This document shows positions 2,374 to 45,408 of a DNA stretch of 64,000 nucleotides, piece by piece (position 1 is the stretch's first letter; every line of letters begins with the position of its first letter). The translations under genes were made by a program, and so were the position numbers. The notes under the pieces are model-generated. The model saw only the letters and a program-made list of their open reading frames with translations, did no database searches and had not been told where the DNA came from. Source of the DNA: an uncultured bacterium (GTDB lineage: Bacteria; Actinomycetota; Thermoleophilia; Solirubrobacterales; 70-9); NCBI GenBank assembly GCA_963806865.1, contig CAWDYV010000002.1:89194-153193 (forward strand). The letters run 5' to 3'.

Positions 2374-3669
2374 GAGCGATCATCGGCGGTGGGCGGCGCC
2401 GCTTCGCCTGCCTGGCTTCAAGCGTCTCGCCTTCGCCTACTTCGACGAACGAGCTCGGAAACTGGCTCGGCGAGATCGCGCTCGCGGTCGTCGTCTTCGA
2501 ACTCACCGACAGCCCGATCGCGACCGCCGGCCTGTTCGTCGCGATGCAGTTCGTACCGGCGCTCACGACTCCGCTCCTGGTCGCGCGCATCGACGCGTGG
2601 AGCTCGCCGGCGCGCGCTCGCGACCCTCTACGCGGGCGAGGCGGCCGCGTTCTGCGCGCTGGCCGCGCTCGCAACCGAGGAGAGCTTCGTGCTAGCCGCT
2701 GTGCTCGCCATCGCGGCCATCGACGGAACGCTCGCGACGGCCGCGCGAGCGCGCTCTCGCGCCGCGGCGGGCGCGATCCTCGAGCCGGCCGGCCTCCTGC
2801 GCGAAGGCAACGGCATCCTCAACGTGGGATTCACGGCCGGCGCCGCGGCGGGCCCGGCCCTGGCCGGCCTCCTCGTCGCAACCGCCGGAGCACAGGTGGC
2901 GCTGCTCGCCGACGCCGCCTCGTTCGTCGCCGTAGCGCTCCTGCTGGCTACTTCCGAGCGCGCTTGGCGCAGCCACCGGGACGACGACGACGAGAAGGTC
3001 CCGTGGACCGACACGCCTGCGGCTCGGCTTCACCTACGTGCGCGAGCGGCCGGTCCTTCGAGCGCCTCCTCGGCGCCGAAGCCGTCGCGTTCGTCTTCTT
3101 CGCCCTCGTCCTCCCGATCGAGGTCGCCTTCGCCAAGGAGACGCTCGACGCCGGCGACCTCGGCTACGGGCTCCTGCTCGCCTCCTGGGGCGTCGGGCAT
3201 GGTGCTCGGCAGCCTGATCTTCTCGGGGCTTCGAGGAGCGTCGCTTGCCTCGCCTCCTGGTCGGCGGCACCGTCGCGATCGGCCTCGCCTACCTGGGCAC
3301 CGCCATCGCCCCCACCCTCGTCGTCGCTTGCGTCGCCTCGGCGGTCGGCGGCGCCGGGAACGGCGTCCAGTGGGTCGCCGTCGTCACCGCGATCCAGGAG
3401 CTCACCGCAGAGGCCTACCAGGCACGGGTGATCGGCCTCCTCGAGTCGCTCGCGAGCGGGCTCTCCGGCGTCGGCTTTCTCCTGGGCGGCGCGATCGCCG
3501 CGATCGCTCTCGCCGCGCGCGAGCTTCGCGGTCGCCGGCTTCGGCGTCATGGTCGTGCTCGCGGGGGCGCGTCGCGATGCTTCGCGGCGTCAAGCTGGGA
3601 AAGCAACCGAACGCCGGATGCGGAACCCGAGCCGGCGCGGGTCCCGGCAAAGGTCTCGTGAGTTGCTAG
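2372..3669 (+). CDS. MFS transporter (EntS/MFS_3-like), frame-disrupted as assembled
   Basis: Pieces lie in three frames: LRLPGFKRLAFAYF; LGEIALAVVVFELTDSPIATAGLFVAMQFVPALTTPLLVARID; GPALAGLLVATAGAQVALLADAASFVAVALLL; AVAFVFFALVLPIEVAFAKETLDAGDLGYGLLLASWGVG; LLVGGTVAIGLAYLGTA...GNGVQWVAVVTAIQE. Typical polytopic MFS layout. The 3' end is uncertain (3661 or 3669). Confidence 0.7.
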
Positions 3670-4890: not shown

Positions 4891-6181
4891 GTGAGAGGGG
4901 AACGGATGGGATGGTCGCGAGCGGTTGCGGTGATTGGAGGCCCCGTCCTGGTCGCCGCTCTCTTGGTCGCTCCCGCTCGAGCCGCGCTGCCAGGCGAGAA
5001 CGGCCGGATCGTCTACCAAGCCGCGTTCGAGAGCGAGCCCACCGAGATCTGGAGCGCCAACCCCGACGGCACCCACAAGCAGAGGGTCACGCGCACACCG
5101 AACCGGGGCGAACTCGAGCCGTCCGCCGGACCAGGAGGGCGGCTGGTGGCGTTCACCCGCATGGACGAAGGGGACCTGGACGTTTTCTTGGCTCGGGTGG
5201 ACCGCTCCAAAGCGGAGCTGAACCTCACGGCCCAAAGCCCCGCCGACGACAAGGCGCCGTCGTTTGGGCCCGACGGGAGGATTGTCTTCGTCAGCGACCG
5301 CGCGGAGAGCGACGACGTGTTCGTGATGGCAAAGGACGGCTCCGAGCAGGTAAACCTGACGCCGAACAGCCCAGGGGAAGACACGGAGCCCTCGTTCTCG
5401 GGCGCGGGCGATCAGATTGCATTTCAGAGCGACCGCGACGGGGATCCGGATATCTACACCGTCGCGTCTGATGGGTCGAGCCAAGCGGTCAACCTCAGCC
5501 TGGACCTCGCGGAGGGGGATTCTGATCCCGCGTTCTCGCCCGACGGCACCACGGTCGCGTTCTCCGGGCTGCGCGGTGACCCCCGCCAGGATCCCGGCCG
5601 AGACGTGTGGTTGATCCAGGCCGACGGGTCGAACCTGCGCAAGGCGATCGATTTCAGCGGCAACGGCCTGGACGAGTTCGGGGGCGAGGCCGCGTTCTCG
5701 CCCGACGGCCGCAAGATCGTTGTCTACGAGGACTCGCAAGGGCAGATCCCCCACCTCTCCGTCACCGACCTCTTCCCCAGCTACGACCTGGGCTTCGAGT
5801 CGTCGAGCGTCGCCGACGCTCTCTATACGCCGAAGTCCGCGCCCGACTGGGCCGTTCGCGCCGACGGCGTGCCGCAAACGTTCATCCGCTCGCTACCCGC
5901 ATCTGATGACTCTCGCTCCAGCGCGACGAGCTTCAGGTTCAGATCGACGGCGCCCGGAGGCGTCCTTCGAATGCACTCTGCGCGGCGTCGACCTCGATCA
6001 GAAGACGCGGCGCTGCGGTAAGCAGAAATCATTTCGGAGCCTGGACGACGGTGCGTACAGGCTGTACGTGCGGTCCGTCGCGCGCGACGGGACTTCGGAT
6101 CCGGTGGCAGCCAATCGCGGCTTTACGATCGGCTCCGGGAGCGACTGTCGCGTCAGCCCTCGGGCGGGTCCCTGCGGCTGA
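4891..6181 (+). CDS. Secreted TolB-like beta-propeller (PD40 repeat) protein with C-terminal Ig-like FECxLDG domain
   Basis: Signal peptide VLVAALLVAPARA. Repeated units APSFGPDGRIVFVSDRAESDDVFVM, EPSFSGAGDQIAFQSDRDGDPDIYTV, DPAFSPDGTTVAFSG, EAAFSPDGRKIVV. The tail FECTLRGVDLD...LDDGAYRLYVRSVARDGTSDP continues in the ORF 5720..6181 frame, with one frame change near 5.93 kb. Confidence 0.65.
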
Positions 6182-37358: not shown

Positions 37359-38474
37359 TCAGAACTGCCCCAGGAAGCGCGCGTCGTTCTCGTAGAACAT
37401 GCGCAGGTCGGGGATGCCGTGCTTGAGGAAGGCGATCCGCTCGATCCCCATGCCGAAGGCGAAGCCCTGGACGCGCTCGGGGTCGTAGCCGTGCTCGGAG
37501 ACGAAGCCGAAGACGTTCGGGTCGACCATGCCCGCGCCGAGGATCTCGATCCAGCCGGTGCCCTTGCAGACGCCGTCGCGCTCGCCGCTGGGCAGCGTGC
37601 CCGAGCCGCCGCAGCGAAAGCAGGAGACGTCCACCTGCACGCTCGGCTCGGTGAACGGGAAGAAGTCGGGCTTGAGGCGGGTCTCGCGCTCCTCGCCGAA
37701 GAGCGCCCGCGCGACCTCCTGAAGCGTGCCCGCGAGGTCGGCGAGCGTGATGTCCTCGGCCACGGCGAGGCCCTCGACCTGCGAGAACATCGGCAGGTGC
37801 GTCGCGTCCATCGTGTCGCGGCGATAGACGGTGCCCGGCACGATCACGAAGAGCGGCGGCTCGATACGTCTCCATCGCGCGGACCTGGTTGGGCGAGGTG
37901 TGGGTGCGAAGCAGGACGTCGCGCGGGCCGGGCGGCAGGCCGTCCTGGCCGACGACGCCGTCGGCGAGCGAGGACGGGATCGACGTAGAAGGTGTCCTGC
38001 ACCATCCGCGCCGGGTGGCCCGGCGGATGGTTGAGCGCGGTGAAGTTGTAGAAGTCGTGCTCGATCTCGGGGCCGTCCATGACGCGATAGCCGAGGCCGA
38101 CGAAGATGTCCTCGATCTCGCGGCGGGTGCGGGTGATCGGATGGATGTGGCCGACGCGCACGGGCGGCGTGCCGGGCAGCGTGACGTCGATCGCGTCCGG
38201 CGCGAGACGCGCGTCGAGCTCGCCGGACTCGAGCTCGCTGCTTGCGGGCGTCGAGCGCCGCCTCGAGCTCCTTGCGCGCCCTGTTCGCGCCCGAGCCGAC
38301 CGGGCCGCGCTCCTCCGCGGGCAGGTCGGCGATGCCGCGCAGGATCGAGGTCAGCTCGGACTTGCGGCCCAGGTAGCGGACGCGGAGCTCCTCGAGCGCG
38401 GCGGAATCGGGCGCCGCGGCGATCGCGCCAGCGCCCTCGGTCCTCAGCTCTTCGATTCGATCGACTGCGCTCAT
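37359..38474 (-). CDS. pheS: Phenylalanine--tRNA ligase alpha subunit, frame-disrupted in the middle
   Basis: [35 protein letters not shown]; [41 protein letters not shown]; [27 protein letters not shown]...[15 protein letters not shown]...[16 protein letters not shown]...[35 protein letters not shown]. Confidence 0.9.
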
Positions 38475-40701: not shown

Positions 40702-40786
40702 TAGATGAAGCTGTTGCGGCGCGTCAAGTCGTTAATGGCGCTGCGAGGTGTTGGGGAACTCCATCTGCGCGGAAGTATAGAGCCGT

Positions 40787-42712
40787 TCTCGAGATGTCAA
40801 GCCCGAAGCCGCTCGGCGAGCGCTTCGGCCGACATCGCGCCCAGATCGCCGTCCTCAGTGCGAGCGCACCGAGATCTCGCCCGACTCGGCCTCGCGGTCG
40901 CCCAGGATCACCATGTAGGGGAGCTTCGCGAGCTCGGCGTCGCGGATCTTCCGGCCGACCGACTCGGTGCGGTCGTCGACGCGGGCGCGGACGCCCTGAG
41001 GCGCTGAGCTCTGCGACGACCTGCGCCGCGCGCTCGTTGTGGCGGTCGGCGACGGGCAGGACGCCGACCTGCACCGGCGCGAGCCAGTCGGGGAAGCGCC
41101 CCGCGTAGTGCTCGATCAGGATCCCCGCGAAGCGCTCCATCGAGCCCAGGAGCGCACGGTGGATCATCACCGGCCGGTGCTCGGCGTTGTCCTCGCCCCA
41201 GTAGGTGAGCTCGAAGCGCTCGGGCATCTGGAAGTCGAGCTGGCAGGTGCCGAGCTGCCAGGAGCGGCCGAGCGCGTCGGTCACGTGGAAGTCGATCTTG
41301 GGCCCGTAGAAGGAGCCGTCGCCGGGGTTGAGGACGTACTCGCGGCCCTGGCCCTCGAGCGCCTCGGTGAGCGCCTTCTCGGCCGCCTCCCAGTCCTCGT
41401 CGGAGCCGATCGCCTTCTCGGGCTTGGTCGAGAGCTCGACCCGCACGTCTTCGAAGCCGAAGCGCGCGTAGAGCTCGTCGATGGACTCGCAGATCGAGTC
41501 GACCTCGGCGCGGACCTGGTCGAGCGTGCAGTAGACGTGCGCGTCGTCCTGGGTGAACGCGCGCACGCGCAGGAGGCCGTGGAGGACGCCCTCGCGCTCG
41601 TGGCGCGAGACGTGGCCGTACTCGGCGAGGCGCAGCGGCAGCTCGCGGTACGAGCGCCGCTCGGCGCCGAAGACGAGGCAGGCGCCGGGGCAGTTCATCG
41701 GCTTGAGCGCGAACTGGCGCTCGTCCACGTCCGAGAAGTACATGTTCTCGCGGTAGTTGTCGTAGTGGCCCGAGCGGTGCCAGAGCTCGACGTCCATGAT
41801 GTGCGGCGTCTTGATCTCGGCGTAGCCGCGCTTTTCGAGCTGCGCGTCCACCTCGTCCTGGATCAGGCGCAGGAGCACGGTGCCCTGGGGCAGCCAGAAC
41901 GGCATGCCCGGGCGACTCGGGGCGCAGCATGAAGAGGCCGAGCTCGCGGCCGAGGCGGCGGTGGTCGCGCTCGCGCGCCTCGTCGAGGAGGCGCTCGTGC
42001 TCTTCCAGGTCGGCCTGCTTGAAGAACGCGGTGCCGTAGATCCGGCTCAGCATGTTCGCGGCTCTCGTCGCCGCGCCAGTAGGCGCCGGCGACCGAGGTG
42101 AGCTTGAAGGCCTTGATGCGCTTGGTCGTCGGGCCGTGCGGGCCGAGGCAGAGGTCGGTGAAGGGGCCGTTGCGGTAGAGCGAGACGGTCTCGACGCCCT
42201 GGTCGCGCACCAGGTCCTCGATCAGCTCGACCTTGTAGGGCTGATCCTCGGCGGCGAAGCGCTCCATGCGCCTCGCCCGGCGTCACGTCCGTGCGCTCGA
42301 ACTCCTCGTCGGCGGCGATGTGGCGGGCCATCGCCTCCTCGATCTTCGGCAGGTCGTCGACCGACGGGCGGAAGTCGTCCGGGAACTCGAAGTCGTAGTA
42401 GAAGCCGTTCTCGATCGCCGGGCCGATCGAGACCTTCGTGCCCGGCCACAGCTCGACCACCGCGGTCGCGAGGACGTGCGCGGCGTCGTGGCGGATGAGC
42501 GCGAGCGCCTCGGGGTCGCGGTCGGTGAGGATCGCGATCTCGGCGCCGTCGGGAAGCGGCGCCGAGAGGTCGCGGAGCTCGCCGTCGACCTTGATCGCAA
42601 GCGCCGCCTTCGCGAGGCCCGGGCCGATCGCCGCAGCGGCGTCGGCGCCCGTCGCTCCGTCCGAGAGCTCGAGCGGGGTCCCGTCGGGAAGCTTTACGGT
42701 GATCGCGGCCAT
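40787..42712 (-). CDS. thrS: Threonine--tRNA ligase, frame-disrupted
   Basis: [16 protein letters not shown] (TGS); [38 protein letters not shown]; [11 protein letters not shown]; [13 protein letters not shown]; [11 protein letters not shown]...CPGACLVF...[39 protein letters not shown]; [12 protein letters not shown]...[14 protein letters not shown]; [11 protein letters not shown]; C-terminal anticodon-binding domain. Many frame changes. Confidence 0.9.
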
Positions 42713-42722
42713 GGCGCTGATG

Positions 42723-44581
42723 CTATTCGCGGCTAGTCGGCGCGGCTCGGCGCGGTCGCCGTCGGCGACGAACGGGCAGCCCGGGTCGGAGCCCGCGAGC
42801 TTGCGCGCGGTAGAGGACGTACTCGAGCCCGTCCGACTCGTGCGCGGTCGATCTCGCTCGAGCCGGCCGACGACCGGCAGCGGCTCGTCCAGCTCGCCGA
42901 TCACGACCACCGCTCCGAACGCCTTGTCCGACACCGTCTCCGGCGAGACCTCCTCCTCGGAGATGACGCACACCTCGCGCCCGCGAAGCTCCCACGTGAC
43001 CAGGTCTCGGCCGTTCTGCGACGGCGAGCTCGTCGTCGATCACGGCCAGGACCGGCTCGTCCTCGGCGAGCTGAGCCGAGAACTCGAGCAGCGCCGGCGT
43101 CCAGGTCGACGGGCCGACCGGACCGTTCACCAGGGCAAGCGCGCTCGAGCCCGCGGCGCCGACCACGAAGGCGAGCGTGAGGGCGGGCACGGCGAGCGCG
43201 CGGCCGGGGCGCTCGCGGAGCGTGTGGACGGGCGGCGTCGCCTCGAGGCAGCCGCGCACCGCGATCAGCATCGCGACCGGCGCGACGATCGCGAGCGCCT
43301 TCGCCTCCTGGTAGGGCGTGCCGCCGACGAGCGCGTAGACGTAGAGGAGCGCCGCCGGCCGCGACCGCCGACGACGAGCGCCGTCTCGCCCGCCCGAAGC
43401 GCGCGCACCAGCCCGAGCCCGAGCGCGAGCGCGCCGATCAGCGCCGCCGAGGTAGAAGGCGAACGCCGGCGCGAAGCCGGCGCCCGGGATCGAGCCGGAA
43501 GTCGCCGGACGGCCAGATGCCGAGCGCCTCGATCGGCGAGATCGGGTTGAAGAGGTTGCCGAGGCCCGCGCCGCTCGGGTCGAAGGTCTCGAAGCTCGCG
43601 AAGTCGATCATGCGCGGGATCTCGGGCGCGGCCGCGACGAGCGACGGCCGCGACGGCGATCGAGCGCCGGGACCAGCGCGTCGCGGATCGGCGTAGAGCC
43701 GCCGGGCGCGAACGATCTCGGCGACCGCGAAGACCCCGAGCGTGCCGACGAGCCACGTCAGGCCCGGGAAAGCTGTAGGCGTAGAGCGAGCCGATCGGCG
43801 AGCAGCCGCGAGCGGGACGGCCTTGAGGCGGCCCCAGCGCTTGAGGCGCGGTGCCTCGGGCGCGCCGTTCGCCTGCGCCAGCTCGGCGAGCCCGATCGCG
43901 AACGCCAGCACGAACAGCGCCTGCATCGTCTCCTTGAAGGCGCCCTGGATGAAGTACGACGCCGCCAGGTAGGCCACGCCGACGAGGAGCGCCGCGCCGA
44001 TTCGCCGCGGCGTCTCGAGGCCACTCGAGCAGCGCCGAGCGGCGCGAGCGTTGCGGCGACGACGGTCGCCAGCGTGAGCCCGCCGAACGCCGTGGACGAG
44101 TGACGGCCCCAGCTTCGCGACCGAGGCAACGAGAGCGTGCGGGCCGAGCGGATACCCCTCGGCGATCAGCCGCTCCTCTCCGCCGCTCGACGAGGCGGTC
44201 CGTCGCGAAGAGGTGCTGCGACATGTCGGGGTTGAGCGAGGTGCCGAGGATCCCGAACCGCATCTCGACCACGAACGGCAGCGACCCGAGGACGACCGCG
44301 CCGACCAGCGGCGGGCACGCGCCCTCGAGTCTCCCCGGTCGGCGGGCTCGAAGCGAAGCGCCGTCGCGCCGACGAGCGTCAGCACGGCGACGGCGCCCAG
44401 GCCCGGCCCAGGCCGAGCCGGCGAGGTCGGTCGCGAGCCAGGCGACGGCGCAGAGCAGGCCGAGGCCGACGGCCGGGGCGAGGGGCGAGCGCTCGCGGTG
44501 GCCGCACAGGCAGAAGATCGCCTGCCCGACGACGAACGAGGCCCCCAGGATGAGCGCCAGCGAGACGTAGGTGCCGAGCAT
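42723..44581 (-). CDS. Large polytopic membrane protein with C-terminal extracytoplasmic domain (family not recognised), frame-disrupted
   Basis: MLGTYVSLALILGASFVVGQAIFCLC...; LGSLPFVVEMRFGILGTSLNPDMSQHLF; AEGYPLGPHALVASVAKL; LLVGVAYLAASYFIQGAFKETMQALFVLAFAIGLAEL; FPGLTWLVGTLGVFAVAEI; FNPISPIEALGIWPSGDFRL; tail ...VISEEEVSPETVSDKAFGAVVVIGELDEPLPVVGRLE. Many frame changes. Confidence 0.45.
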
Positions 44582-44641
44582 CGGGCGGCGAGCCTAAAGC
44601 CGACGCGCCAGGCCCGGCGCCGGGGGCGACGCGCCTCCGGG

Positions 44642-44701
44642 TCACGTGACGAGAATGATGATGATGATGATCAGGAGCAGGGTGCCGAGTCCGATGTACA
44701 T
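44642..44701 (-). CDS. 19-codon hydrophobic mini-ORF, copy 1 (downstream copy): MYIGLGTLLLIIIIIILVT
   Basis: ATG 44701-44699 is preceded by aacacAGGAGatcgc (SD, 5-nt spacer). The stop is TGA at 44644-44642. Six consecutive Ile codons (ATC x5, ATT). Confidence 0.55.
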   Translation of the reverse strand: MYIGLGTLLLIIIIIILVT

Positions 44702-44716
44702 GCGATCTCCTGTGTT

Positions 44717-44776
44717 CTAGGTGACGAGAATGATGATGATGATGATCAGGAGCAGGGCTCCGAGTCCGATGTACAT
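44717..44776 (-). CDS. 19-codon hydrophobic mini-ORF, copy 2 (upstream copy): MYIGLGALLLIIIIIILVT
   Basis: ATG 44776-44774 is preceded by aaGGAAGGAGagcac. The stop is TAG at 44719-44717. It differs from copy 1 by one conservative replacement (Thr/Ala), two synonymous changes and the stop codon. Confidence 0.55.
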   Translation of the reverse strand: MYIGLGALLLIIIIIILVT

Positions 44777-44871
44777 GTGCTCTCCTTCCTTGGACTGAGC
44801 GGGATGCGCTCATCCTTACCCCTTCGGCGGACGCTCAAGCGCATCCGATTGGCAGCCGCGCCTCGAAGCGT

Positions 44872-45331
44872 CTAGAGCTCGCGCTCGTAGAAGAGCATCA
44901 GCGGGCCCGAGCCGCGGCCCTCGTGGTTCGTGAAGCCCTCGCTCTCGTAAAGCGCGACGCGCCGCCTCGTCGTCCTCGCTCGTGCCGAGCTCCATATGCG
45001 TGCGCACCCTCGGCGCGCGCAACGTCCATCGCCTCGCGCAGGAGCTTGCGGCCGATCCCCTGCCCACGCAGGTCCGGGACCACGTAGAGCTCCTCGAGAT
45101 AGGCAGTCGAGCTTCGCCGTCCAGACGGACTTGCGAAAGCGAAGCTCGGCGAGGCCGTCCGGCCCGTCGCCGGCGAGGAGCACGACCATGTCGCCCGCGT
45201 CGAGCATCTCGCGCGCGTTCCGGTCAGCACCTCGACGCCGGGCGTGAAGTCGTCGTACTCGGTGTTGAAGTCGTGAAGCAGCCGCGCCACGTCGGGCGCG
45301 TCGTCGGGGTGGCGCGTCGAACGCGGCTCAC
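44872..45331 (-). CDS. GNAT family N-acetyltransferase, frame-disrupted
   Basis: RRATPDDAPDVARLLHDFNTEYDDFTPGVEVL; MLDAGDMVVLLAGDGPDGLAELRFRKSVWT; YLEELYVVPDLRGQGIGRKLLREAMDVARAEGA; ALYESEGFTNHEGRGSGPLMLFYEREL-stop. Pieces lie in 3 frames. Confidence 0.65.
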
Positions 45332-45335
45332 GAGA

Positions 45336-45408
45336 TGGGCACTACTGGGCTCGAACCAGTGACCTCCGCCTTGTCGAGGCGGCGCTCTCCCAACTGAGCT
45401 AAGCGCCC
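45336..45408 (-). tRNA. tRNA-Val (anticodon GAC)
   Basis: Minus strand: GGGCGCT-TA-GCTC-AGTTGGGA-GAGC-G-CCGCC-TCGACAA-GGCGG-AGGTC-ACTGG-TTCGAGC-CCAGT-AGTGCCC-A. Full cloverleaf of 73 nt with no encoded CCA. The anticodon loop has C instead of the usual U at position 33. Confidence 0.85.

Follow-up and report, generated by a model that had tools for sequence, protein, structure and literature searches.

A tandem pair of very small predicted membrane proteins in a Solirubrobacterales genome, and the cross-phylum family with stress-type promoter motifs to which they belong

A genome of an uncultured bacterium (GTDB lineage Bacteria; Actinomycetota; Thermoleophilia; Solirubrobacterales; 70-9) carries two tandem open reading frames (ORFs) of only 19 codons, the products of which are wholly hydrophobic and include six consecutive isoleucines. 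The locus raises the question of what such ORFs are: toxins, regulatory leader peptides, subunits of a neighboring membrane enzyme, genes of some other kind, or no genes at all. We address this question for a stretch of 64,000 nucleotides, referred to here as the window (NCBI GenBank assembly GCA_963806865.1, contig CAWDYV010000002.1, positions 89,194 to 153,193 of the forward strand), and for related loci, numbered with the prefix L, from genome, metagenome and viral collections. Comparative evidence shows that the mini-ORFs are genuine genes whose protein sequences are conserved, and that members of their family carry promoter motifs of stress sigma factors. We favor, at a probability of roughly 0.7, the reading that they belong to a family of general-stress-induced micro membrane proteins, duplicated in this lineage and present in the window as tandem paralogues.

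The tandem pair and its family

A first-pass annotation, made from the letters of the sequence, had described a 75-bp unit duplicated head to tail on the minus strand, each copy with its own Shine–Dalgarno (SD) sequence, an ATG, 19 sense codons and a stop. Direct reading places all of these elements as described (Table 1), and Tandem Repeats Finder reports a 75-bp period with 1.9 copies at 93% identity (44646-44786). The listed differences between the copies are likewise borne out: two are synonymous (GGA in copy A and GGC in copy B at codon 6; ACC and ACG at codon 19), one is a replacement (GCC and ACC at codon 7, Ala and Thr), and the stop codons differ, although single-base differences in this window call for caution, the ordinary genes there being full of frameshifts. 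The isoleucine run is as conspicuous in GC-rich DNA as had been claimed. A run of six Ile codons occurs at two sites in the 64 kb, both within the mini-ORFs, and in none of 100 shuffles; the mini-ORF region has a GC content of 0.48, and the surrounding DNA about 70%. A second promoter would not fit into the short spacer between copies A and B, which therefore probably share one transcript.

Both ORFs belong to a family that can be defined as ORFs of 19–27 codons reading M-Y-I-G-[ILV]-G-[TAG], followed by at least 11 Ile, Leu or Val residues; both also have their own SD within 5–10 nt of the ATG. A scan of one genome per GTDB species with the pattern ATG-TWY-NTN-GGN-NTN-GGN-NNN followed by nine NTN codons gave at least 120 matches, and among the matches listed at least 107 loci are ORFs of 19–26 codons; the remainder are N-termini of longer proteins from A+T-rich genomes, and most of them begin with MF. 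In an independent metagenome set, 118 of the 120 matches listed are ORFs of 19–27 codons, with 97 distinct peptides. A degenerate form of the pattern search that the first-pass annotation had proposed thus recovers more than 200 short ORFs reading MYIG[LIV]G[TAG] and then 11–12 Ile, Leu or Val, with or without an arginine tail. Their hosts fall in the Actinomycetota, Pseudomonadota, Acidobacteriota, Chloroflexota and other phyla. Among the matches listed, actinobacterial carriers include Thermoleophilia, Acidimicrobiia, Nitriliruptoria, Streptomyces, Trebonia, Catenulispora and Actinoallomurus; others are Acidobacteriota, Thermomicrobiales, Chitinophagaceae, Saccharimonadales and Sphingomonadales, together with the betaproteobacteria Oxalicibacterium and Sulfuriferula. 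Seventeen viral or proviral contigs in IMG/VR also hold a member. Five of these (L133, L135, L137, L142 and L143; GC 0.64–0.70) encode peptides of 24–26 residues with an RRR tail, without a stress promoter or a clear SD; they directly abut an upstream ORF and so seem embedded in another operon.

The pattern of variation within this family is that of a protein. Tyr2 and Ile3 are each conserved at 104 of the 107 genome loci even though the scan pattern demanded neither, and position 7 is Thr (82), Ala (17) or Gly (7) at 106 of them. The third bases of the Gly4 and Gly6 codons are free to vary, with entropies of 1.5–1.7 bits. Length is bounded, at 19 codons in 52 cases, 20–22 in 21 and 23–26 in 34, and an SD core precedes 98 of the 107 genome members and 100 of the 118 metagenome members (85–92%); across a range of GC content from 0.46 to 0.75, frame, length and SD stay fixed while codons change. 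A C-terminal tail rich in Arg and Lys is present in 47 of the genome members. The conservation of residues left free by the scan, the free third bases of the glycine codons, the bounded length and the frequent SDs together argue for selection at the protein level, as the first-pass annotation had expected of the peptide as opposed to the DNA. Its view of the product as a small single-helix membrane peptide is supported as well. Across the family, positions 11–16 are freely Ile, Leu or Val; the invariant part is the N-terminal MYIGxG and not the Ile codons.

For a comparison of orthologous loci, the membrane protein encoded downstream of the pair, a predicted GT-C-fold protein described below, was stitched from three frames and used as a query, and contigs were taken for nine of its homologues. 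More than 3000 homologues exist, the best of them at 74–78% identity in Solirubrobacterales metagenome bins. The order in relatives is tRNA-Val, an optional GNAT acetyltransferase gene, one or two mini-ORFs, the membrane protein gene, thrS and infC. Two copies occur in L001, at the same positions and with peptides identical to those of the window, and in L002 (MYIGLGALILIIIIIILVA, then MYIGIGTLLLIIIIIILVT); one copy occurs in L003 (MYIGIGTLLLIIIIIILVT), L004 (MYIGLGTLLLVIILIVLLT) and L008/L009 (MYIGIGALILIIILVILLT). The GT-C–thrS locus of L005 has none, nor do L006 and L007, which are paralogous GT-C loci without thrS. The mini-ORF is found at the same locus even though the neighboring membrane protein is only 54–78% identical to that of the window, and there it retains its frame, length and SD. 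The six-Ile run, by contrast, is broken in orthologues at this locus (LLLVIILIVLLT in L004, LILIIILVILLT in L008).

With L031, a GTDB representative, the genomes that have the pair number four, the window included. The second copy in L031 (6401-6461) has one extra base, GGAC ATC where L002 has GGC ATC, and is otherwise intact to the TAG; the insertion reflects either an indel error of long-read sequencing or an inactivation of very recent date. The Ala7 copy precedes the Thr7 copy in all four genomes, and we conclude that the duplication predates their divergence and that neither copy has been discarded since. The intervening spacer measures 15, 33 or 39 nt (33–39 nt in the three genomes other than the window) and is unalignable, whereas the conserved blocks of the intergenic alignment are the ORFs with their SDs and the start region of the membrane protein gene, a contrast that indicates selection on the ORFs. 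The same pair in three other assemblies with differing spacers also rules out an assembly duplication artefact, a possibility raised at the outset. As to synteny and copy number, which the first-pass annotation had proposed to compare, the locus is kept in close relatives, tandem pairs are confined to the clade of the window, with one copy per locus nearly everywhere else, and the neighbors are not conserved across the family. A metagenome contig, L237, has two members of 23–24 residues on the minus strand (3179-3250 and 5395-5469) with near-identical SD contexts; at 2.2 kb apart, these represent a dispersed and not a tandem duplication.

Family-wide, the members behave as free-standing genes, as comparative evidence from their surroundings shows. 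The nearest downstream gene lies on the same strand at 39 of 75 loci and on the opposite strand at 36; the nearest upstream gene splits 43 to 30. All-against-all clustering of neighbors found no family at more than 9 of 108 loci, and a Pfam scan of 148 flanking proteins gave 167 families, the commonest of which, rhodanese, appeared only 6 times; neither analysis yielded a conserved partner. The 60 nt after the stop codon have a mean folding z of −1.18 (−0.20 in a control window taken upstream), a textbook terminator begins 1–5 nt past the stop in many members, and the k-mers enriched downstream are those of terminators. Unconserved neighbors and orientations, together with these terminators, point to a free-standing gene and not a leader peptide. 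The lineage of the window may differ in one respect. In the window and in L001–L003, the spacer between copy B and the membrane protein gene has no folding advantage over its shuffles (z −0.16 to +1.3), a consensus scan of the window for sigma-70 promoters and terminators found nothing, and the 251-nt transcript region likewise shows no structure beyond that of shuffled controls (z −0.01); lacking a convincing terminator after copy B, transcription could read through into the membrane protein gene.

Elsewhere in the Solirubrobacterales and Thermoleophilia, a second conserved context is apparent (L017, L023, L039, L041, L042 and L063), in which the mini-ORF lies mostly between genes of 117–120 and 132–145 codons, has the SD context CCAAAGGAGC and is in most cases followed by a strong GAAAGGCCCGC...GCGGGCCTTTC terminator. 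Over all loci, the Pfam families seen most often in flanking proteins are rhodanese and cupin.

These proteins have largely escaped annotation. Neither the mini-ORFs nor other family peptides gave anything above cut-off in Pfam, NCBIfam, PHROGs or PADLOC, a profile search of the PDB gave no match, and Rfam found only the neighboring tRNA above noise at the locus. Exact look-up of ten family peptides of 20–25 residues, those of RefSeq isolates included, found none in a collection of about 15 billion proteins. A 43-residue concatenate used as a query returned only gene calls of 24–76 residues with MYIG... at the C-terminus, nearly all extended upstream from unconserved in-frame starts and all labeled "hypothetical" or given spurious automatic names. 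Literature searches with the motif strings (8 million papers) and with GGIII returned nothing relevant. The claim that the peptide belongs to no described family therefore holds for Pfam, NCBIfam, PHROGs, PADLOC, the PDB and the literature, and we regard the mini-ORFs as a real feature: a new, unannotated family within a known kind, the bacterial small membrane proteins, as judged from sequence.

Stress-type promoter motifs and their interpretation

An unbiased 5-mer test of positions −100 to −15, set against about 18,000 control windows of the same loci, ranked GGGTA as the most enriched word upstream of the family, at 41 of 105 genome loci versus 3.3 expected, with GTTT-containing words next. 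The metagenome loci gave the same word at 28 of 112, versus 4.2 expected. At actinobacterial-type loci, G[TC]TT-N14-17-GGG[TC]A is present in 29 of 86 (control rate 0.37%) and a broader SigF/SigB-like form in 39 of 86 (control 0.9%), usually ending 25–70 nt before the ATG. Replication in the metagenome found the SigF-like form at 29 and the broad form at 40 of all 112 loci; by class, the broad form occurs at 40 of 102 Thr7/Ala7 loci and at none of 10 Gly7 loci. The Gly7 members, which are of Sphingomonadales type, instead carry an EcfG-type motif, GGAAC-N16/17-CGTT. It occurs at 4 of 4 genome loci, perfect with N17 in L061 and L070 and with one mismatch and N16 in L099 and L113, and in the metagenome at 6 of 10 Gly7 loci compared with 1 of 102 Thr7/Ala7 loci; in Gly7 members it always ends 34–37 nt before the ATG.

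The window, whose two members are not of the Gly7 class, has GCTT-N15-GGGTA at 44840-44817, the sole match to G[TC]TT-N14-17-GGGTA on either strand of the 64 kb, and by motif match it has a putative SigB/SigF-type promoter of a general stress regulon. The SigF promoter of Mycobacterium smegmatis is GTTT-N14-19-GGGTA, with regulon members listed as GCTT-N15-GGGTA (PMC4694148); the SCO1566 promoter (SCO1566p) of Streptomyces coelicolor reads GCTTGG-N13-GGGTAG (PMC8346170), and the Bacillus subtilis SigB consensus is quoted in the same paper as GTTTAA-N12-14-GGG(A/T)A(A/T). The EcfG-type motif corresponds to the general-stress promoter of alphaproteobacteria, which in Sphingomonas melonis has the form GGAAC-N17-20-GTT (PMC6599016). 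In S. melonis Fr1, few genes depend on EcfG as strongly as Sphme2DRAFT_2026, annotated as a "hypothetical protein," with log2 values of −6.1 and −7.3 in the ecfG mutant (PMC6599016). At 35 nt from the coding sequence it has the motif GGAACTTCGGTCC...GCGTT, which resembles in sequence and spacing that of Sphingomonas family members (GGAACTTCGCTC..., 33–37 nt). This gene is a candidate orthologue, or may be an ORF called over one.

If these motifs function as they appear to, a sigma factor of SigB/SigF type would recognize the GCTT-N15-GGGTA element about 40 nt upstream of copy A and give rise to a short mRNA with both ORFs, each of which would be translated from its own strong SD. The fully hydrophobic products would enter the cytoplasmic membrane, and those with a basic tail would, by the positive-inside rule, lie N-out and C-in. 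They might then act as a stress-induced "micro-proteolipid" that alters bilayer properties or binds and modulates larger membrane proteins, and the duplication would raise dosage or supply Ala7 and Thr7 isoforms. The choice of sigma factor in Thermoleophilia, the membrane insertion, the topology and the molecular role are parts of this scheme that we infer.

Several points weigh against this reading. Transcription, translation and membrane location are predicted from sequence for every member of the family, and the molecular function is a guess, for which bilayer change, binding to larger membrane proteins and formation of oligomers are the options. Among close relatives, codons for the same amino acid differ at 6–24% in the mini-ORFs compared with 45–50% in the neighboring gene, and the rare codons GGA and ATT are retained; such conserved synonymous sites may reflect some constraint at the RNA level. 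Only 26–45% of Thr7/Ala7 loci match the SigF/SigB-type motif as written, and over half do not. None of 8 beta- and gammaproteobacterial loci has either stress motif; neither does any of the 17 IMG/VR loci, and the promoter claim is therefore not extended to viral and proviral copies. The enrichment p-values assume independent loci, which phylogenetically these are not, so that significance is overstated, although the effect size is large. Finally, the SigF/SigB-type assignment is transferred from Mycobacterium, Streptomyces and Bacillus and is putative for Thermoleophilia.

A wider claim can be framed more tentatively, and we put its chances slightly below even: that a conserved general-stress effector of 19–27 residues exists in several phyla under non-homologous regulators, SigB/SigF-type in Actinomycetota and relatives and EcfG in Sphingomonadales. 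Were this true, the family would be among the smallest conserved stress proteins known, and a rare case of the same tiny effector under different general-stress switches. Proteins below 30 residues mostly escape annotation, and this family, though present in hundreds of species, is too small for gene callers; yet its comparative signal is unusually clean for a gene of this size, and the MYIGxG motif is specific enough for a small-protein annotation model. If confirmed, the family would extend general stress regulons by a component embedded in the membrane and provide a simple model for how a single short hydrophobic helix can be useful under stress. The regulatory prediction is testable in cultured carriers: Sphingomonas sediminicola DSM 18106, Sphingomonas sp. 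URHD0057, Trebonia kvetii 15TR583, Oxalicibacterium flavum CCM 7086 and Sulfuriferula multivorans TTN.

Alternative readings and the surrounding genes

Three alternatives had been offered, in outline, in the first-pass annotation. According to one, the peptides are Ibs-like toxins of type I toxin–antitoxin systems, which depolarize the membrane and are held in check by an antisense RNA from the plus strand. The 19-residue size, total hydrophobicity and tandem arrangement are as in Ibs, toxins such as TisB would fit with a promoter that responds to stress, an antisense RNA overlapping the ORF could explain why synonymous sites vary so little among close relatives, and viral or proviral contigs do carry members. 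However, no toxin model of Pfam (Ibs, Ldr), NCBIfam or PADLOC matched at E values up to 10, and no promoter-like k-mer is enriched on the antisense strand, either downstream of or across the ORF, where only terminator k-mers emerge; within the window, a consensus scan gave no antisense promoter, though actinobacterial housekeeping promoters are too weakly defined for that to be an exclusion. Type I toxin mRNAs usually sequester their SD, whereas the SD here is strong and lies in an mRNA region as unstructured as shuffled sequence. Known type I toxins are also phylogenetically narrow, whereas this family spans several phyla, nearly always in single copy, with tandem pairs in one clade and the L237 copies well separated. 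The comparison with Ibs and Ldr toxins is one of size and hydrophobicity, and we consider the toxin reading unlikely. Still less probable is the second suggestion, a regulatory leader by which transcription or translation of the downstream GT-C–thrS operon would be governed through ribosomes stalled at Ile/Leu codons or at the final Thr codon. Six consecutive Ile codons in G+C-rich DNA, a position upstream of an operon containing thrS and a peptide ending in Thr would all suit such a leader, but the Ile run gives way to Val and Leu in L004 and L008, terminal Thr is found in only 24 of 107 members, and the best-conserved part, MYIGxG, is one that a stalling leader does not need. Moreover, the downstream gene is convergent at nearly half of the loci, terminators follow many members, no alternative-hairpin architecture is seen (z about 0), and neither aminoacyl-tRNA-synthetase nor branched-chain amino acid genes are enriched nearby. 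Ile attenuation accordingly fails on three defining points: the regulatory codons are not conserved, alternative hairpins are absent, and no regulated operon is seen.

A third possibility is that the peptides are a dedicated small subunit or assembly partner of the adjacent GT-C glycosyltransferase, co-transcribed with it in this lineage in the manner of KdpF, CydX or AcrZ. The neighbor is a polytopic membrane enzyme, adjacency is kept in relatives across substantial divergence of the GT-C protein, and no convincing terminator separates its gene from copy B in the window or L001–L003. Yet most members lie far from any GT-C homologue, no neighbor family is enriched, the GT-C–thrS locus of L005 and the paralogous L006 and L007 do without a mini-ORF, and other Solirubrobacterales hold theirs in a different conserved context. 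The GT-C gene also appears to be independently expressed. A TAnnCT hexamer stands 8–9 nt before its start codon in the window, L001–L006 and L008, including the mini-ORF-less L005 and L006; kept with or without the mini-ORF, and in the absence of an SD, it suggests that the GT-C gene is transcribed from a promoter of its own into an mRNA with little or no leader. A partner role, which we judge improbable as an account of the family, is possible solely as a lineage-specific addition. The remaining alternative, that there is no gene here but an ORF arising by chance in repeated DNA, a structured RNA or a duplication made in assembly, could draw on the many indel errors in the window, on the ORFs being too short for gene callers, and on the absence of the ten family peptides looked up from the protein collection. 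It is effectively refuted by the comparative data: the pair recurs in three independent assemblies, more than 200 homologous ORFs vary in codons but not in frame, length or SD, and the locus shows no Rfam match above noise except the neighboring tRNA and no excess RNA structure.

The flanks named in the first-pass annotation, a GNAT gene and a large membrane protein gene, are both present (Table 1). The "hypothetical" membrane protein of about 605 residues has no Pfam domain, but its AlphaFold model (P0002; pLDDT 84.5, pTM 0.88) predicts with high confidence a GT-C glycosyltransferase fold; its top 12 Foldseek matches in the PDB are AftA, AftD, STT3, DPY19, PglB, ArnT and AglB. In Solirubrobacterales, this gene is followed directly downstream by thrS-infC-rpmI-rplT. 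On the other side of the pair, the GNAT gene lies between tRNA-Val and the mini-ORFs in the window, and upstream of the mini-ORFs in L001–L003. A tRNA-Val(GAC) gene directly precedes the locus in L004 (3721-3793) and L005 (3907-3979), both of which lack the GNAT gene; that gene may therefore be an insertion beside the tRNA gene.

Between 37359 and 45290, even housekeeping genes of the window are split over two to four frames, among them thrS (40724-42973) and pheS (37359-38474). Since the closest relatives come from long-read soil metagenome-assembled genomes, these frameshifts are probably indel errors and not signs of decay into pseudogenes. At 42720-42800, the C-terminus of the GT-C protein (…CPFVADGDRAEPRR) continues in frame into the start of thrS without a stop, whereas in L001 a stop and about 20 nt separate the two genes; this apparent fusion is probably another indel error.

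Table 1. Positions in the window of the tandem mini-ORFs, their putative expression signals and the neighboring features
Feature	Coordinates	Strand	Remarks
GT-C-fold membrane protein gene (predicted fold), ~605 aa	42745-44581 (3' end approximate)	minus	~ten frameshifts; large polytopic protein; start ATG 44579-44581, without SD
TAGGCT, −10-like hexamer	44591-44596	minus	9 nt before the GT-C start ATG
Spacer from copy B to membrane protein gene, 60 nt	44582-44641	minus	G+C-rich; without convincing terminator
Mini-ORF copy B	44701-44642	minus	19 codons + TGA (44644-44642); peptide MYIGLGTLLLIIIIIILVT; read directly
SD of copy B, AGGAG	44711-44707	minus	inside the 15-nt spacer 44716-44702; 5 nt before ATG 44701
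Mini-ORF copy A	44776-44717	minus	19 codons + TAG (44719-44717); peptide MYIGLGALLLIIIIIILVT; read directly
SD of copy A, GGAAGGAG	44789-44782	minus	5 nt before ATG 44776; kept in L001-L004
−10-like element, GGGTAA	44816-44821	minus	13 nt past the −35-like hexamer; 40 nt from the end of its GGGTA core to the ATG of copy A
−35-like element, GCTTGA, SigF/SigB-type	44835-44840	minus	block conserved in L001-L004, L008, L031
GNAT acetyltransferase gene	44872-45290	minus	Pfam Acetyltransf_1, E 1.2e-9; split over two frames; intact in L001-L003
tRNA-Val(GAC)	45336-45408	minus	ARAGORN and Rfam

Comparison with known systems

Amino acid leader peptides such as IlvL, IvbL and LeuL are short ORFs rich in Ile, Leu and Val codons, as are the mini-ORFs; unlike those leaders, the mini-ORFs have no conserved regulatory codons, no terminator/antiterminator pair and no downstream biosynthetic operon. 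The Ibs type I toxins (Escherichia coli IbsA-E, 18–19 residues, with Sib antisense RNAs) resemble the family in form, with a wholly hydrophobic single helix of the same size and, in some cases, tandem copies; the arrangement reportedly takes the form of ibsA/B and ibsD/E pairs. The present family differs from Ibs in having no sequence similarity by Pfam and no detectable antisense gene signal, and in its strong unsequestered SD, its cross-phylum spread, its usual single copy per locus and its stress-sigma motifs.

Two annotated families share elements of the peptide. In TatA/TatE, as here, an N-terminal Gly-containing motif precedes a short Ile/Leu/Val helix, but the mini-ORF family has no hinge, no amphipathic helix and no linkage to tatB or tatC. 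Membership was rejected: only the helix aligns to PF02416 and TIGR01411 (residues 2-19, E 0.05-9), with scores far below the cut-offs. The NF041738 model, GG_III-CTERM, describes a GGIII-like transmembrane region that combines glycines, an Ile-rich helix and a basic tail, as do some members of the family. It is typed as a domain and, from its name, is presumably the C-terminal region of larger proteins, whereas the mini-ORF product is a whole free-standing protein. Membership was rejected here also, the best family score being 21.0 bits, for the basic-tailed MYIGIGTVVLIVIIVLVVLMLRRR over model positions 2-26 of 28, against a curated cut-off of 22; the window peptides score 14.2 and 13.2.

In mode of action, KdpF, CydX, AcrZ, MgtS and MgrB offer a plausible parallel. 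These proteins of fewer than 50 residues have a single helix and bind and tune larger membrane proteins; their genes, however, lie within the operon of the partner protein or close to it, whereas the mini-ORF family has no conserved partner gene. The closest functional analogy is to the small, very hydrophobic proteins that are induced in the general stress response, namely the Pmp3/YqaE/RCI2 proteolipids, GlsB/YeaQ/YmgE and the small membrane proteins of the Bacillus sigma-B regulon. Those proteins have 50–85 residues, at least two helices and Pfam families of their own; the family described here, which shares no homology with them, would perform an analogous role with 19–27 residues and one short helix.

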